Shown here: positions 53,394-60,669 of the stretch, piece by piece
How the letters are laid out: each line of letters opens with the position of its first letter
Numbering within the stretch: the stretch's first letter is position 1
Source of the DNA: Lachnospiraceae bacterium
GTDB taxonomy: Bacteria > Bacillota > Clostridia > Lachnospirales > Lachnospiraceae
Length of the DNA stretch: 64,000 bases
Assembly (NCBI GenBank): GCA_029008875.1
Contig: JAQXJP010000003.1
Span: 6,710-70,709, forward strand
Direction: 5' to 3'
Made by a program: the position numbers and the translations under genes
The notes under the pieces: model-generated
What the model was told of the DNA's origin: nothing
Seen by the model: the letters and a program-made list of their open reading frames with translations, nothing else
The model's database searches: none

Positions 53394-54581
53394 ATGGCAA
53401 AGGCTAAATTTGAAAGAACAAAAGCACATTGTAATATTGGTACCATCGGTCACGTAGATCATGGTAAAACTACTCTTACAGCTGCAATCACAAAGGTATT
53501 GGCTGAGAGAGTTGCTGGTAACGAGAAGGTAGACTTCGAGAACATCGATAAGGCTCCGGAAGAGAGAGAGCGTGGTATTACCATTTCTACCGCTCACGTT
53601 GAGTACCAGACAGAGAAGAGACATTACGCACACGTTGACTGCCCGGGACATGCTGACTACGTTAAGAACATGATCACCGGTGCTGCTCAGATGGATGGTG
53701 CTATCCTCGTAGTAGCTGCTACTGACGGTGTTATGGCTCAGACAAAGGAGCACATCCTTCTGTCTCGTCAGGTAGGTGTACCTTACATCGTTGTATTCAT
53801 GAACAAGTGTGATATGGTTGATGATCCGGAACTTCTTGAGTTAGTAGAGATGGAAATCACCGAGCAGTTGGAAGAGTACGATTTCACCGGATGCCCGATC
53901 ATCCAGGGTTCTGCTCTTAAGGCTCTTGAGGATCCGATGGGACCTTGGGGAGACAAGATCATGGAGCTTATGGATACCGTTGATTCTTATATCCCGGATC
54001 CTCAGCGTGATACAGATAAGCCTTTCCTTATGCCTGTAGAGGACGTATTCACTATTACCGGACGTGGTACTGTAGCAACCGGTAGAGTAGAGCGTGGTAC
54101 CCTTCACTTGAATGAGGAACTTGAGATCGTTGGTATCAAGGAAGAGACTCAGAAGACCGTTGTAACCGGTATCGAGATGTTCCGTAAGATGCTTGACGAG
54201 GCTCAGGCTGGTGATAACATCGGAGCACTTCTTCGTGGTATCAACCGTGACCAGATCGTTCGTGGACAGATCCTTGCTAAGCCGGGAACAGTTACCTGCC
54301 ACACCAAGTTTACTGCTCAGGTTTACGTATTGACCAAGGACGAAGGTGGACGTCATACTCCATTCTTCAACAACTATCGTCCTCAGTTCTACTTCAGAAC
54401 AACAGACGTTACCGGTGTATGTAACTTACCGGCTGGTACTGAGATGTGCATGCCTGGCGATAACATCGAGATGACCATCGAGCTCATCCATCCGATCGCT
54501 ATGGAGCAGGGTCTTACATTCGCTATCCGTGAGGGTGGACGTACTGTAGGTTCAGGCCGTGTAGCTCAGATCATCGAGTAA
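53394..54581 (+). CDS. tuf: Elongation factor Tu
   Basis: [31 protein letters not shown]. Confidence 0.99.
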
Positions 54582-54582
54582 T
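54528..54582 (+). repeat. Left attachment-site copy (tuf 3' end)
   Basis: CGTGAGGGTGGACGTACTGTAGGTTCAGGCCGTGTAGCTCAGATCATCGAGTAAT. Confidence 0.9.
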
Positions 54583-54615
54583 TTCAATTGATAGTGTCAC
54601 AAAGCTAGTAAAATC

Positions 54616-54652
54616 AAGGCTTTCCGTGTTTTAACACGGGGAGCCTTTTTTT
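54616..54652 (+). terminator. Terminator after tuf (element-supplied)
   Basis: AAGGCTTTCCGTGTT / AACACGGGGAGCCTT plus T run. Confidence 0.8.
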
Positions 54653-54679
54653 CGTTTGTACGTAAAAAATTTTGATTAG

Positions 54680-54698
54680 TGGCTCCAAAATGGCTCCA
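54680..54698 (+). repeat. Subterminal arm-type repeat, left
   Basis: TGGCTCCAAAATGGCTCCA (TGGCTCCA twice, 11-bp period); identical copy at 59824. Confidence 0.8.
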
Positions 54699-54872
54699 TG
54701 ATACGTGGTGATACTCGTGTTCGTCAATCTTGAATAGGTCGAACAATTAGCAATACTTAAATTTTATTGACAGAATGATGGATCAAGGGGACCTCGTTGA
54801 GTGGTTCCTTTTTTCGTCATACAGTACTATAATAGATTTGTTTAGAAAATAGGAATATTATGAATAGTTGAA

Positions 54873-54921
54873 AGGGACTGTTGCAAAAGTAGCTAATTGC
54901 GCTGCTTATACAACAGTCCCT
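54873..54921. repeat. 11-bp perfect inverted repeat
   Basis: AGGGACTGTTG ... CAACAGTCCCT. Confidence 0.7.
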
Positions 54922-55250
54922 CTTAATATTAGTATAGACCATTATATTTTGGAAGTGGATATTTTTTCATACTCTTTACACCGTGCAAGAAAAGCTTTGG
55001 CAGATGAGGTTAAGTGCAGGCGTGACGACAGGTATGCGTAATTTGCATATAACCGGGCTGCAGTATCGAAAATGGAAGCGCTTAAGTACTTGCTGAGTAT
55101 GAGTTTCACGAAGATTAATAAAGAACTAAATTTATGAAAAATAATATTGTTGAAACTTTTTATCCTAATACTTCATCAAACAATATGAGGATAGAAATTG
55201 TATGCGATTTTGTTTGGATAAAATAGAACCTATGACATAGGGTATCACAT

Positions 55251-55973
55251 ATGAAAGGAGAAAGCACGGAGTACATGAGTAAGAATATTGCAGTATTTAA
55301 TAATACCACAGGCGTAGCAGAAAGTATGAAATCTTTGTTTGCGGGAGAGGGATTGAGTATGATAAAGGCTGCCTCGCTGAATGAACTATTATTGCTGATA
55401 AAACACGACAATATCCACTTGATTCTTATGGATTTGGAATTAGAAGGAGGTGGCTTGGGGTATGGTATAGAAATAATTCAACTTATTAGGAGGTGTACTG
55501 TTATTCCCGTAATAGTGATATCAGCACAGACTGCAGAAACTGCTAAAATTATGTCATTGAATGTAGGGGCAGATGATTATGTAACAGCTTATGACAGTCC
55601 ATTGGTTTTATTGGCAAGAGTAAAAGCGCAGTTGCGTAGATATATAGAATTAAATACTCTTTTTGAAAGTTTTGGGAATATATATAGAATAGGTGATTTA
55701 GTATTAGATGATAATATCCATGCTGTAATGGTTGGGGGCAAAAATGTTAAAATGACACCTATAGAATATAAAATACTACGTCTGCTGATACAGGAGCAAG
55801 GAAAAGTTTTGACCATTAATGAGATATATGAAAGGATTTGGCAAATGCAAGCACTTGATGCTAAGAATATTATTGCGGTACATATTCGTCATGTTCGTGA
55901 AAAGATAGAAAAAAATCCCAAGGAACCTAAATATATAACTGTAGTTCGTGGCTTAGGATATAAAGTTGGATAA
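55251..55973 (+). CDS. OmpR-family response regulator, orphan and atypical
   Basis: LILMDL, GADDYV, winged helix MTPIEYKILRLL...IAVHIRHVREKIE...VRGLGYK; no kinase nearby. Confidence 0.88.
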   Translation: MKGESTEYMSKNIAVFNNTTGVAESMKSLFAGEGLSMIKAASLNELLLLIKHDNIHLILMDLELEGGGLGYGIEIIQLIRRCTVIPVIVISAQTAETAKIMSLNVGADDYVTAYDSPLVLLARVKAQLRRYIELNTLFESFGNIYRIGDLVLDDNIHAVMVGGKNVKMTPIEYKILRLLIQEQGKVLTINEIYERIWQMQALDAKNIIAVHIRHVREKIEKNPKEPKYITVVRGLGYKVG

Positions 55974-56079
55974 TGAAGGAGAGAGATGCTGTCAGAATGT
56001 GAAAGGAAATGCTGGTGACATTGTTGCCATGATGCTTTTATGATATGATAGAAAAAAGGACAAATGACGGGGTGATGAC

Positions 56080-56583
56080 GTGCAGGTTTTAGGATTTATG
56101 AAGAAAAAGAGTAATGAAGAAATCGTGGAGGAAGTAATATTGGAACAATATAAGCAGTATTATCGATTGGCATATAGCTATGTTCATAATGACGCTGATG
56201 CTGAAGATATTGTGCAAAACGGTGCATATAAAGCCTTGCGTAGTAGCAATACATTACGAAATCCTGAATATGCAAAGAATTGGGTATATCGTATTATGTT
56301 AAATGAGATATTTAACTTTTTACGACAGCCCAAAGCGGTGTCATACGAATATATGCAGGAAGAAATGGGGATGGAGGCAGAACATGTTGAAGACACATAC
56401 ACAGATATTGATTTGCAGACAGCTTTGGATTCTCTTCCGGAACAGGACAAGGCAATTATAGTGATGAAATTTTTGGAGGACAAAAAACTGGAAGAGATAG
56501 CGGATATCCTCAATGAAAATATAAATACGATAAAAAGCCGTTTATATCGCAGTATGAAAAAGCTTCGTATCAGATTAGAATAG
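56080..56583 (+). CDS. ECF RNA polymerase sigma factor (SigV-like)
   Basis: YRLAYSYV...DAEDIVQ, WVYRIMLNE, EIADIL...TIKSRLYR. Confidence 0.9.
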   Translation: MQVLGFMKKKSNEEIVEEVILEQYKQYYRLAYSYVHNDADAEDIVQNGAYKALRSSNTLRNPEYAKNWVYRIMLNEIFNFLRQPKAVSYEYMQEEMGMEAEHVEDTYTDIDLQTALDSLPEQDKAIIVMKFLEDKKLEEIADILNENINTIKSRLYRSMKKLRIRLE

Positions 56584-56602
56584 GCGAAATGGAGAAAAAA
56601 TT

Positions 56603-57535
56603 ATGAAAGATAACATTATTAATTTTGAACAGCAATGTGAACAGTCGAAGAAGGGCTTACACTCCTTGCAGAAAGAATATATGCAACCAACGATGTCTGA
56701 AGAACAGCTAAGCAGGCTGAAAATGAAAATGGAAGAGGCAAAATGCGAAAATCGTAAAGAAAGAAGAAATGCACGTATTACAAGAATTGCTGCAACAGCG
56801 GCAGCATTGGTAATTGCATTTATAACTTTGCCAAATCTGTCCCCTACCATTGCATATGCTATGGAACAGATGCCGATTCTTGGCCGTTTTGTAAAGGTTG
56901 TAACCTTCCGTAATTATGAGTATGAGGATGAACAGCATAAGGCAGAGTTGGATATTCCTGAAATTGTGATAGATGATCAGCTTCAGGATGAACGGATCCG
57001 AAGTGTATTGGAGGATACAACGAATGAAATGAATTCTGAAATTCAGAAGCTTTCCAATGAATTATTGGATGAATTTGTAAGTTATATGCAGGATGAGTTG
57101 GGATATAAGGAGCTTATTGTTAAGAGTGAAGTTGTGACAACTACGCAGGAGTATTTTACCTTAAAACTGTCTTGTTACCAAAGTGAGGCAAGCGGATATG
57201 AATGGGCTTATTTTTATACCATTGATTTGACTTCCGGTAAGCGATTACAGTTAAAAGATATATTTGCGGAAGGTGTGGATTACATTACTCCCATCAGTGA
57301 AAATATTAAAGAACAGATGCGGAGTCAGATGGAAAAAGATGAAAACATTTTATATTGGTTAGATGATGAAATGGAGGAAATGAATTTTCAGGCTATTACG
57401 GAAGAAACGGATTTTTATATTAACCAAAATAATGATGTGGTAATCTGTTTTAATGAAGGGGACGTGGCTCCTATGTATATGGGAATGATTGAATTTGAAA
57501 TTCCGGCAGAAGTTTTAAAGGAGATCAGAAAATAA
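56603..57535 (+). CDS. RsiV-like anti-sigma factor (DUF4163/DUF3298 type)
   Basis: One TM helix then PNLSPTIAYAMEQMPILG (signal-peptidase-type AxA site), YTIDLTSGKRLQLKDIF, FNEGDVAPMYMG. Confidence 0.82.
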   Translation: MKDNIINFEQQCEQSKKGLHSLQKEYMQPTMSEEQLSRLKMKMEEAKCENRKERRNARITRIAATAAALVIAFITLPNLSPTIAYAMEQMPILGRFVKVVTFRNYEYEDEQHKAELDIPEIVIDDQLQDERIRSVLEDTTNEMNSEIQKLSNELLDEFVSYMQDELGYKELIVKSEVVTTTQEYFTLKLSCYQSEASGYEWAYFYTIDLTSGKRLQLKDIFAEGVDYITPISENIKEQMRSQMEKDENILYWLDDEMEEMNFQAITEETDFYINQNNDVVICFNEGDVAPMYMGMIEFEIPAEVLKEIRK

Positions 57536-57636
57536 TTTGGGGATGAAACGAAAGGCTTTCCGGCGATGGAGAGCTTTTTTGTTTTTAAATATTTTGGTGT
57601 TGAAGTTACATAGAGTAGATAAATATAGTATTTACT

Positions 57637-57665
57637 TGAAACAATTTTATGAGTTGGTACGTCTA
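57637..57665 (+). promoter_or_regulatory. ECF-sigma-type promoter of the lipoprotein gene
   Basis: TGAAAC (57637-42), N17, CGTC (57660-63); matches the SigV/SigW/SigM-type consensus. Confidence 0.6.
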
Positions 57666-57712
57666 AAGGATATAAGAAAATAGGGAAAGCAGTTCCCGGA
57701 AAGAGGTAAGGA

Positions 57713-58105
57713 ATGAGTAAAAAAATATTAATGATGTTAGCTGTTTTAACTGTATGTGCAGGTGTTATGGTTGGATGTTCGAAAGGAAACGGAAAAGAGG
57801 ATGCCAAAACTCCTGTGAGCATAATGCAGAGTGAAGTTATGGAGGAGGAACCGATGCCGCCAGAGAGTGATAAGAATAGTGTAGATGAAGATGTGTCGGA
57901 AGTAATAGGAAAAGTAGACGAAATAAAAGACTTTATGTTTATCATAACGGATGATGATAAGGTTAGTTATGCATTTACTTTTGAAGAGAAGCCGGAAGGT
58001 CTGGATAAGATTGCTGTAGGAGATACAGTACTTGTAACTTATACAGGTACGATATCAGAGGTTGATCCTTTTATGGGGAAGATTCTGTCGGTTGAGAAAA
58101 AGTAA
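57713..58105 (+). CDS. Small lipoprotein, OB-fold-like
   Basis: Signal peptide with lipobox VMVGC; beta-rich C-terminus IAVGDTVLVTYTG. Confidence 0.75.
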   Translation: MSKKILMMLAVLTVCAGVMVGCSKGNGKEDAKTPVSIMQSEVMEEEPMPPESDKNSVDEDVSEVIGKVDEIKDFMFIITDDDKVSYAFTFEEKPEGLDKIAVGDTVLVTYTGTISEVDPFMGKILSVEKK

Positions 58106-58131
58106 GGAAGTTTTAAAAGCGGATAAGATAC

Positions 58132-58233
58132 TTCTTCAGCCTTGTTACAATCGATTCTGAGAAGGTATCCGTTATAATGGTAGATAGCAATGCTGTTGGT
58201 TTGAGGATTGTATTCTGCGTGTACGATTTTCAT
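58132..58233 (-). pseudogene. 3'-truncated DUF6061-like gene fragment
   Basis: MKIVHAEYNPQTNSIAI...GYLLRIDCNKAEE after a GAAAGGA RBS; resembles small genes of Lachnospiraceae mobile elements; the frame then runs antisense into the lipoprotein gene. Confidence 0.5.
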
Positions 58234-58458
58234 GATTGTTATCCTTTCGTTTTTGTTTTAGAGGTAAAAGTCCATGGGCTCATTTTGGACTTGATAATTT
58301 TTTGAAATAAATGTAATAGTCACAAAATGTGATAGTTTTTGCAATGAAAAGCAATATAAAATATTTAAAATAACACAGTTTGTGATATGTTTGGTTGTGT
58401 TGCTACTATCATTGAATAATCCCGTAAATTCAGGCTTTTTAAGCATTTGAATGAGGAT

Positions 58459-58521
58459 TTTGCAACAAAATTGCAAGGCATAATGCTGAATAATGCATGA
58501 TAATGCAAGTTTCAGTAATGC
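58459..58521 (+). repeat. Short phased direct repeats
   Basis: TTGCAA twice at an 11-bp period, then TAATGC at 58481, 58491, 58501 and 58516. Confidence 0.65.
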
Positions 58522-58599
58522 AGCGAATCCAATTTAATAAGATTTTGCATCTAAGGACATTATCCAAGTGAAAACAAGGAAAGTGTCCTTTTTTGTGTT

Positions 58600-58851
58600 G
58601 TGGTCAAAAATTACAGGAAGAATACGATTGCAGAGCTGAAGAATACGATTATCGATCTGAAAGGAAAGTTGGCTGCGGTCACACAGGAACTGGCAGGATA
58701 TAAGTCTGTTCGAAATCAGCTTTATGTATCAGAATTGGAGCAGGAGAATGACTATCTGAGAGGGAAACTTGAGAAGTACAATGCCGTGATTGAGAAGAAT
58801 GATTTGAGGAGATATTTCCGGAAGCCGGCGGAACGAGATAGAGGCAGATAA
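58600..58851 (+). pseudogene. C-terminal coiled-coil fragment resembling MobV/Pre relaxase tails
   Basis: YKSVRNQL...LEQENDYLRGKLEKY..VIEKNDL..YF; no relaxase catalytic domain upstream. Confidence 0.45.
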
Positions 58852-58988
58852 TTATGCTATAAGTGGTAGGGTTCATTAAGATGTAGAGGACGTCACAACC
58901 TATATTAGTGTCGTCCTCCTTATTAATTTCCATTTTTATGGTAATATATATCTGTTAGCTAAATTGAATTTGACGAGGAGGAACAGCA

Positions 58989-59729
58989 TTGATGAATAAT
59001 ATATTAAAAATCGAAACAACATCGTTTTCCTTGCATATCATGGCTATGATATTTATGTTGTGCGACCATTTGTGGGGTACAATTATCAATGGAAATGACT
59101 GGTTGACTTGTATCGGCAGATTAACTTTCCCAATCTATGCATTTATGATTGTTGAAGGGTATTTTCATACAAAAGACTTCAAAAAATATGTGAAACGATT
59201 ATTGCTGTTTGCTGTTGTTTCTGAGATTCCTTTTAACATTGCAATGGGAAGCAGTGTATTTTATCCCATCCATTAGAACGTTCTATGGACATTTCTAATT
59301 GCACTTGGCTTGATTCATTGGAATGAAAAAGTAAAAGAAAACAAACTTTGGAAGCGAATTATAATTGGTATCACAACACTTGCTGTTGCTTATATTGGTG
59401 GAATCATTACCTTTGTAGATTATTATAACGCTGGTATTCTTATGGTACTCACATTCTATTTTTTTAGAGGAAAAATGTGGTGGCATTATCTTGGGCAGTT
59501 GTTGTGTATGTGGTATATCAATATTGAATTGCTTGGTGGGTTTGGTTATGAGGTAGACCTATTCGGCACAACACAATTCATCACAAGGCAAGGATTTGCC
59601 CTGCTAGCATTGATACCGATATGGTTGTATAGAGGGAAGCAAGGATATCATAATAAGATACTGCAATATGGTTACTATGTGTTTTATCCGTTGCATTTGC
59701 TGATATTAGGTGTTCTTAAGTTTCTGTAA
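58989..59729 (+). pseudogene. traX: TraX-family membrane acyltransferase interrupted by one in-frame TAG
   Basis: MLCDH...IGRLTFPI...VEGYFHT...SEIPFN...H*NVLWTF...YNG-like tail FYPLHL; both ORF pieces are in the same frame; TAG at 59274-76. Confidence 0.8.
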
Positions 59730-59823
59730 ATTCCAATATGTCGAACAGATGATACTTTCAGTTTCATAAGAATTGTTATGACAAAAAGATGGACAAATAA
59801 CGATTGATGTGTTAGAGTCTAGA

Positions 59824-59842
59824 TGGCTCCAAAATGGCTCCA
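59824..59842 (+). repeat. Subterminal arm-type repeat, right
   Basis: TGGCTCCAAAATGGCTCCA, identical to 54680-54698. Confidence 0.8.
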
Positions 59843-59945
59843 ATAATTTTGGGAAATAAAAATACATAATGTATATAGTGCCTAAAAACAGCATAAAATC
59901 AATAAAAAACATGGTAGAAGATAGCGACAAAGCCAAAACCGGGAG

Positions 59946-60000
59946 CGTGAAGGTGGACGTACTGTAGGTTCAGGCCGTGTAGCTCAGATCATCGAGTAAT
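59946..60000 (+). repeat. Right attachment-site copy (displaced tuf 3' end)
   Basis: 54/55 identical to 54528-54582; the only difference is synonymous (GAA vs GAG, Glu). Confidence 0.9.
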
Positions 60001-60021: not shown

Positions 60022-60054
60022 AAGGCTCCCAAGGTTTTCCTTGGGAGCCTTTTT
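60022..60054 (+). terminator. Terminator after the displaced tuf end (probably the native tuf terminator)
   Basis: Perfect 13-bp stem AAGGCTCCCAAGG / CCTTGGGAGCCTT plus T run. Confidence 0.85.
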
Positions 60055-60095: not shown

Positions 60096-60115
60096 CAAAC
60101 GCACGCGTGCGTTTG
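60096..60115. repeat. 20-bp perfect palindrome upstream of a SigA-like promoter
   Basis: CAAACGCACGCGTGCGTTTG; TTGCAA-N17-TATGAT follows at 60121-60149. Confidence 0.8.
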
Positions 60116-60166: not shown

Positions 60167-60636
60167 ATGATTTCAAATGAAGAAAATCGATTGGGAAGAT
60201 CATTACCTATCAATTCGTTATTAGTTCTATCAGCACTGCAAAACCAGCGTAGATTGACGATTGCAGAAATTGCAGAAGTAACGAATATTGGAGAAATTCG
60301 CGCTAAAGCAGTAGTTGAAAAAATGGTTGAAACCGGTTTAGTGGATGCAAGCGGTAATAATAGGTCACGGTTTTATATACTTAGTTCCAAGGTATATAAG
60401 GAGCAGGATAACATCCTAGGATATGTTCGTCAGACGGGAATTGATGCAGTGAAATATGAAGCTTGGATTATGGAGTTGCTGCAAAAGCAAGGCGGAAAAG
60501 TGACAAGAGACAATGTTGTGGAATTATTAAATGTTACCCCACCACAAGCTTATCGTCTGTTGAAAAAATGTCTGATAAGGGCCGGATTAAGCTTGTTGGA
60601 AATGGACGAGCGGCACATTATGAATTGAATAAATAA
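60167..60636 (+). pseudogene. 5'-truncated, frameshifted C-terminal wHTH part of an ATP-binding transcription-regulator-like gene
   Basis: Two wHTH-like repeats (LTIAEIAEV...KMVETGLV..SG; VTRDNVVELL...AYRLLKK); adding one A to the A6 at 60563-68 gives the natural ending MSDKGRIKLVGNGRAAHYELNK*. Confidence 0.6.
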
Positions 60637-60639
60637 ACG

Positions 60640-60669
60640 CACGATAAACGCACGCGTGCGTTTATCGTG
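60640..60669. repeat. 30-bp perfect palindrome
   Basis: CACGATAAACGCACGCGTGCGTTTATCGTG; shares an 18-bp core with 60096-60115. Confidence 0.85.

Follow-up and report, generated by a model that had tools for sequence, protein, structure and literature searches.

At the 3′ end of tuf, the gene for elongation factor Tu (EF-Tu), the stretch of DNA analyzed here (64,000 nt of a Lachnospiraceae bacterium, GenBank assembly GCA_029008875.1, contig JAQXJP010000003.1, positions 6,710 to 70,709 of the forward strand; hereafter called the window) carries an insert of 5.36 kb (54583-59945) that is bounded by direct repeats, and a short distance inside both ends of this insert lies a copy of the same 19-nt sequence, TGGCTCCAAAATGGCTCCA. 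The present analysis concerns the nature of these two 19-mers and of the insert that they flank, which is probably the stranded remnant of a mobile element that had targeted tuf. The features at the two ends of the insert are the following.

53394-54581, + strand: tuf (EF-Tu, 395 aa), with the Pfam GTP_EFTU, D2 and D3 domains
54528-54582, + strand: left copy of the direct repeat, core region of the left attachment site (attL); probable crossover within CGTGAGGGTGG at 54528-54538
54616-54654, + strand: element-borne strong intrinsic terminator now serving tuf, delimited also as 54616-54647, a 14-pair stem followed by a T run, kept in all left ends
54680-54698, + strand: candidate left (P′) arm site, with TGGCTCCA half-sites at 54680-87 and 54691-98
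54719-54731, + strand: deletion junction, with 13-nt microhomology GTTCGTCAATCTT; from 54732 onwards the sequence is that found 16,384 bp further on in the related genome G062
59824-59842, + strand: candidate right (P) arm site, with TGGCTCCA half-sites at 59824-31 and 59835-42, 103 nt before the core
59894-59902, + strand: TAAAATCAA, right arm, conserved in the right arms of the family of the window's element and of the G075 family
59946-60000, + strand: right copy of the direct repeat, core of the right attachment site (attR) and the native end of tuf that was displaced; in congeners the two flanks directly adjoin each other
60022-60054, + strand: native tuf terminator, cut off from tuf by the insert; hairpin AAGGCTCCCAAGG/CCTTGGGAGCCTT and T run

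Searching the window returned two exact copies of TGGCTCCAAAATGGCTCCA, both on the + strand, and no third copy at up to three mismatches (0.02 expected; 0 of 100 shuffles reached two copies), nor was there any copy at up to two mismatches outside the two ends across the 2.63-Mb, 93%-complete genome. Each 19-mer consists of two direct copies of TGGCTCCA placed 11 nt apart, start to start, and since the sequences bordering the two copies differ, the repeat is exactly 19 nt long. This agreed with the initial annotation as to the positions, the shared orientation, the 8-mer repeated at one helical turn and the gaps of 97 nt (54583-54679) on the left and 103 nt (59843-59945) on the right that separate the 19-mers from the 55-nt direct repeats. 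The symmetric placement that had also been claimed is valid only as measured from the edges of the repeats, however, because with GGTGG, the probable crossover, as the reference point the left arm is at +141 nt and the right arm at -114 nt. The left site is found 98 nt past the tuf stop codon, a distance shared with Anaerostipes faecalis, R. porci, G062 and G063. No other TGGCTCCA half-sites were found near either end at up to one mismatch, in the window or in its relatives, and apart from the doubled 8-mer no further repeated sequence was found to be conserved in both arms. Inside the element, at 58273-58289, there is an inverted imperfect copy (14/17) of the arm word with its flank, CATGGGCTCATTTTGGA, which may be due to chance or may be the relic of an older end.

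That TAAAATCAA also occurs near both ends, as noted earlier, is correct with regards to its presence (54609-17 and 59894-902), but with three occurrences in the window versus 2.15 expected it is not enriched, and its conservation is confined to the right copy. The left copy lies within the leader of the tuf terminator, which resembles native terminators, and most relatives instead read TAATTATAA at that place; TAAAATCAA is therefore not supported as a second paired arm site. The right copy may serve as a putative site for an accessory factor, such as an excisionase (Xis) or a bending protein.

The two direct repeats match at 54 of 55 positions and comprise the last 54 nt of tuf together with one additional base. 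The corresponding empty site (attB), with the two flanks contiguous, was found in the same-genus genomes G032, G003, G069 and G007, with the native terminator following directly after tuf in the empty sites of the first three. In other relatives the shared stretch is shorter, with the two att copies of G063 being identical only over CGTGAAGGTGG and those of A. faecalis only over CGTGAAGGTGGACGTACTGTAGG. To the right of the shared stretch attR holds host-specific tuf sequence, and the tuf end of attL, because it is alike in six different genera, is carried by the element. When attL was compared across hosts, the switch between host-specific and element-specific sequence fell at GGTGG in A. faecalis, G063 and other relatives, and in the window the direct repeats mismatch only once, with GAG in the left copy and GAA in the right one, so that the exchange falls to the right of this position. 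These comparisons indicate that crossover probably occurs at or just after GGTGG, within CGTGARGGTGG, and that the element supplies some 43 nt of the coding sequence of tuf along with its stop codon and terminator. Both the window and G062 have an element-borne tuf end that is the same as the displaced one (54539-54582 and 59957-60000 in the window), while in other hosts the two differ at 7-9 positions; the repeat is 55 nt long here because the element-borne end became identical to the displaced host end, which suggests gene conversion between the two copies, by which EF-Tu would regain the C-terminus native to its host. In this genus the 3′ end of tuf is an integration hot spot, with at least 14 of 61 congeneric genomes having extra copies of the 55-nt tuf end, some of them in tandem. 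Examples among these and other genomes (L094-L096) include G075, with a tandem of 8.4-kb and 3.6-kb elements at tuf, G085, with a mini-insert of about 1.9 kb, and also G078.

The initial annotation had proposed the 19-mer as a fingerprint for the cognate integrase, to be searched for beside tuf 3′ ends. Using the exact 19-mer and one genome per species (185,579 species, 596 Gb, both strands), we found it in 54 stretches, as compared to about four expected by chance according to our own rough arithmetic. In 25 of these 54 stretches it adjoined the 3′ end of tuf, 14 times as a left arm and 11 times as a right arm, with the register seen in the window, in Anaerostipes, Roseburia, Pseudobutyrivibrio, Agathobacter, Faecalimonas, Eubacterium and unnamed Lachnospiraceae, and the matches led directly to the cognate integrases, so that the motif indeed served as the proposed fingerprint.

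The element of A. faecalis AGMB03513 (L071, contig 9, 70.7-81.8 kb) represents the intact form, being about 11 kb in size with its arm sites 10.9 kb apart. It has the order tuf, arm, helix-turn-helix (HTH) repressor on the opposite strand, Xis, integrase (Int), AAA_25 replication ATPase, Mob_Pre relaxase of the MobV type, cargo, arm and tuf remnant. The Xis protein is ICEBs1-like and of 62 aa (NF047858, E 5.5e-12), whereas Int is a tyrosine integrase of 355 aa with PF14657 (Arm-DNA-bind_4), PF14659 (SAM_3) and the catalytic PF00589 domains. The cargo includes a gene of the streptomycin-adenylyltransferase family (PF04439, E 3e-112) as well as genes for a radical SAM enzyme and for an rRNA methyltransferase resembling RlmA. 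This element is followed in tandem by another, which has TGATAACA arms. The recombination module recurs in the elements of R. porci and Faecalimonas, whose relaxases and cargo are different. The PF14657 arm-binding domain was present in the integrases of L042, L026, L071 and L094, all of which are relatives, as the window itself holds no integrase. Among solved structures the integrase matched 3nkh best (an unnamed ‘Integrase’), followed by the Tn1549 integrase. The intact relatives are integrative mobilizable elements (IMEs) of the usual Firmicutes kind, and the near-identical integrases found in different genera suggest that members of this family have been active. The intergenic region between the HTH repressor gene and xis carries repeats of GTACGAAA, the evident repressor operators, and the 19-mer was consequently dismissed as an operator of that repressor.

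The arm-type nature of the repeats, as proposed from the window, gained support from these relatives, because the pair is present in both arms of the integrase-bearing tuf elements. When diverged families were aligned (Faecalimonas-type and Roseburia/Anaerostipes-type integrases being 72% identical, and a third type, L048, 41% over the first 66 residues), the 19-mer with two or three adjoining bases was the longest invariant block in both attL and attR, with unrelated immediate flanks. Moreover, sister families have arm words of their own: five different words, all doubled and phased at 11 nt, were found at the one tuf core, namely TGGCTCCA and the first four listed below, and a further word occurs elsewhere.

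TGGCTCTA: both arms of the G075 element, Int 59-62% identical
GGTGCCA: both arms of another G075 element, which lacks an integrase; also the R. porci element, in its right arm
TGATACY: both arms of the decayed G078 element
TGATAACA: beside a 58%-identical Int in A. faecalis
TTGATAACA: beside a 41%-identical Int, elsewhere in the window's own genome

For four arm-word families the right arm was mapped (none was mapped for TGATAACA), and its pair there stands 102-104 nt away from CGTGARGG; the distance of the left-arm pair past the tuf stop codon varies from 83 to 195 nt. The N-terminal strands of Int vary with the arm word, reading W-x-(A/V)-Q-(W/C)-Y in TGGCTCYA elements and W-Y-V-(S/M)-(F/V)-R-Y in those with TGATAACA. 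Based on this diversity, the doubled 8-mer could tentatively be regarded as a modular ‘address’ that prevents interference among elements sharing a single landing site, an idea that we consider somewhat more doubtful than not. If it were true, elements and remnants standing in tandem at tuf would be excisable only by an integrase of the matching arm word.

The window's copy is no longer of this intact form. Within 54583-59945 a survey of open reading frames (ORFs) and Pfam domains, together with tblastn using the relaxases of the family, revealed no encoded integrase, xis, replication protein or relaxase, and an ORF of 83 aa (58600-58851) that was considered as a relaxase relic had no convincing match to family relaxases. 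Positions 54719-58929 are 99.6% identical, by BLAST, to contig 26 of Lachnospiraceae bacterium HCP1S3_C2 (G062), although identity between their two tuf genes is just 87%. The block shared with the window is separated in G062 from the left end by 16,384 bp, and the segment that the window misses encodes the repressor, xis, int, AAA_25 and Mob_Pre. The breakpoint falls between the imperfect 13-nt repeats GTTCGTCAATCTT and GTTCGACAAACTT, and the deletion begins 21 nt past the left arm site. In G062 itself, int (L081 6520-8343; also L044) is split near codon 302 by a nested element having a large serine recombinase, a RhuM-family gene, a MobA/MobL relaxase and an ABC-F ATPase. Two further copies, one with Int residue 61 fused to the 3′ part of the regulator gene (L025) and one lacking the regulator (L011), are independent decay products of the same element. 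No cognate integrase was found in the 93%-complete genome of the window, the closest being only 41% identical, located elsewhere and having TTGATAACA arms.

Taken together, we find it probable (approximately 0.78) that the insert is the stranded remnant of a tuf-targeting IME, with the 19-nt repeats being the arm-type sites of the tyrosine integrase of its family. This family would use site-specific recombination to insert within the last ~45 nt of tuf, with crossover at or next to GGTGG, whereby the element's own tuf end and terminator would replace the displaced ones. The integrase would be heterobivalent, of the Tn916/ICEBs1 kind, with PF14657 as its N-terminal arm-binding domain. Two direct 8-bp half-sites per arm, one helical turn apart, would then provide four sites for four protomers, with Int held on the arms by its N-terminal domains and reaching the core sites in tuf with its C-terminal domains across bent DNA, and with the direction of the reaction set by the ICEBs1-like Xis. 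In the window, the genes from the repressor, xis and int to the replication ATPase and relaxase were lost through a deletion between the imperfect 13-nt repeats, which left the att ends and the cargo. As had been suggested for the ends of the insert, the core and arm regions match those of the integrase-bearing relatives, and they may thus still be competent for recombination. The copy is now immobile, because its genome is without a cognate integrase, and having neither integrase nor relaxase of its own it is not an IME. It has kept attL and attR, has lost the genes for integration and transfer by decay, and has relatives that stand in tandem arrays at tuf; it is a cis-mobilizable element (CIME), since its excision or carriage in cis would need the arrival of a TGGCTCCA-type element.

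Several observations weigh against this interpretation. We found no binding or recombination data in the literature for the tuf-element family, and a pattern specific for the junction of an excised circle (attP) had no matches in metagenome contigs. A cognate integrase may reside on DNA missing from the 93%-complete genome. In the R. porci element the two arms do not match, the left one having TGGCTCCA and the right one GGTGCCA, so that matched arms may not be universal, or this copy may be a hybrid remnant. Finally, Int and Xis are inherited together, and as both proteins vary with the arm word, covariation cannot separate them.

The last point concerns the binder of the repeats, as the doubled 8-mers could be bound by the ICEBs1-like Xis, or by another accessory protein, rather than by the N-terminal domain of Int. 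Xis is encoded just upstream of int in every family member, its putative recognition helix differs between TGGCTCYA elements (HAYK/HAYQ in 4 of 4) and TGATA elements (K/T/Y-AY), and the Xis of Tn916 reportedly binds in both arms. Recombination directionality factors normally act asymmetrically on one arm, however, whereas here an identical pair is found in both, and the integrases have a dedicated arm-binding domain that needs sites, with no other repeat being conserved in both arms. Because the sites are identical in the two arms, number four as would suit an Int tetramer, and meet an integrase with such a domain, Int is favored as their predicted binder and we consider recognition by Xis unlikely. 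It is far less probable still that the 19-mer is a transcriptional element, in the form of an OmpR/PhoB-type response-regulator box for the regulator in the cargo. Proteins of the OmpR family bind tandem direct repeats spaced by about one helical turn (~11 bp), and one such regulator is encoded in the element, but the same 19-mer occurs at the same distances in the regulator-less elements of A. faecalis, R. porci and Faecalimonas, and it follows the integrase family and the att core instead of the cargo; this alternative was thereby rejected and can hardly be correct.

A different question is whether the integrase-less cassette still moves between hosts, as a non-autonomous unit that TGGCTCCA-type integrases would excise and integrate in trans. 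In favor of such movement, the cassette has kept its two att ends complete, and the cargo is 97-99.6% identical in hosts having tuf genes that differ by 9-13% (L009/G062, L011, L025 and L040). Against this stands the finding of a different deletion derivative in each host, with the window lacking 16.4 kb, L025 having the fusion of Int to the regulator and L011 having no regulator, and the deletions would therefore have arisen after transfer of fuller elements. The deletion junction of the window, furthermore, had no matches in metagenome contigs, the relaxase and presumably the origin of transfer (oriT) are gone, and the genome has no helper integrase. We hence regard continued movement of the cassette as very unlikely, and retain the reading of the insert as a remnant stranded in its present host.

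The remaining content of the insert is cargo, with the following genes.

55251-55973, + strand: OmpR-type response regulator, with Pfam Response_reg and Trans_reg_C
56080-56583, + strand: sigma factor of the extracytoplasmic function (ECF) type, with Pfam Sigma70_r2 and r4_2
56603-57535, + strand: anti-sigma-like membrane protein, with DUF4179 and DUF3298
57713-58105, + strand: small lipoprotein-like ORF, no family match
58989-59729, + strand: traX pseudogene, two Pfam TraX fragments, with TAG at 59275-59277 where L040 has CAG

Only one of five near-identical copies (L040) has an intact traX, with different nonsense codons in the window and L025 and different deletions in L009 and L011; the gene was inactivated repeatedly and independently. 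Beyond the insert, an exact 18-nt palindrome, AAACGCACGCGTGCGTTT, stands at 60097-60114 and at 60646-60663, on either side of a gene for a winged-helix (TrmB/MarR-like) regulator (60167-60628), and these palindromes are probably operator sites.

Matches to the 19-mer were also seen at targets other than tuf. At ten loci in bins of uncultured Bacilli, ‘Tenericutes’ and ‘Nanosyncoccus’ (L005, L008, L012, L015, L018, L034, L035, L036, L038 and L049) it lies about 85 nt past the secA stop codon, or past a short 3′ remnant coding for SEC-C, in a conserved intergenic block. No integrase was seen at these loci within 8-kb tiles, and they may represent another element family using the same arm word at a different target. 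In Acidobacteriota (L004, L014, L019, L021, L037, L041, L055, L003 and L043) and in Marinimicrobia (L028/L006) the 19-mer is instead found about 85-110 nt from tRNA-like fragments. At L043, two pairs lie 196 nt apart around the 5′ half of a tRNA, and 42 nt beyond there begins an integrase gene with PF00589 as its only domain. Such occurrences may reflect either convergence or deep conservation of the arm word. The presence of TGGCTCCA-N3-TGGCTCCA in att-like settings, near secA in uncultured Bacilli, and near tRNA fragments and integrases in Acidobacteriota, hints at a recurrent and possibly predictable code for recognition by arm domains.

With the core, the crossover region, the arms and their spacing, the att sites are now defined at the level of sequence for a guild of tuf-targeting mobilizable elements of gut and rumen Lachnospiraceae that is apparently undescribed. 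We found no paper describing tuf-targeting elements of such a kind, and in some members of this guild the cargo is resistance-like. As a search key the arm word is of practical use for elements, remnants and integrases, and the sister families, having different arm words at one core, constitute a natural experiment on how arm-binding domains read DNA. For the genome of the window itself, the island is a fixed remnant, with its sigma, anti-sigma and regulator cargo now being ordinary chromosomal DNA.

With regards to previously studied systems, this is a known kind of system, with no new mechanism. CIMEs have been defined for elements of the ICESt1/ICESt3 type and for streptococcal IMEs (PMC5704250), and the window's element is like them in being derived from a fuller element by deletion and in occupying a site that hosts tandem stacking (A. 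faecalis L007, L054 and G075). It differs in its target, the tuf 3′ end, which we did not find described in the literature, and no cis-mobilization was seen here. Some IMEs of Firmicutes that combine a tyrosine integrase with a MobV relaxase target the 3′ ends of housekeeping genes, as for example IMESag-rpsI (PMC5704250). The intact relatives, at about 11 kb, resemble that element in having int, xis, a replication ATPase, Mob_Pre and variable cargo including resistance-like genes, and in rebuilding the 3′ end of an essential gene; they differ in the target gene and in their Lachnospiraceae hosts, and the window's copy falls outside the definition of an IME. The arm-type sites of heterobivalent tyrosine integrases have been described in general terms in a study of phage mv4 attP (bioRxiv 10.1101/2023.11.06.565760). 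As with the P and P′ arms of lambda, the subterminal repeats of Tn916 and mv4 attP, the tuf family has short repeats that are unrelated to the core and lie 100-150 bp out in both arms, together with an integrase having a separate N-terminal arm-binding domain and an Xis partner. Compared with those systems, the arrangement of the candidate arm sites in the tuf family is very simple, with one identical direct pair per arm, and its right-arm distance is strictly kept at 102-104 nt in the four mapped arm-word families.

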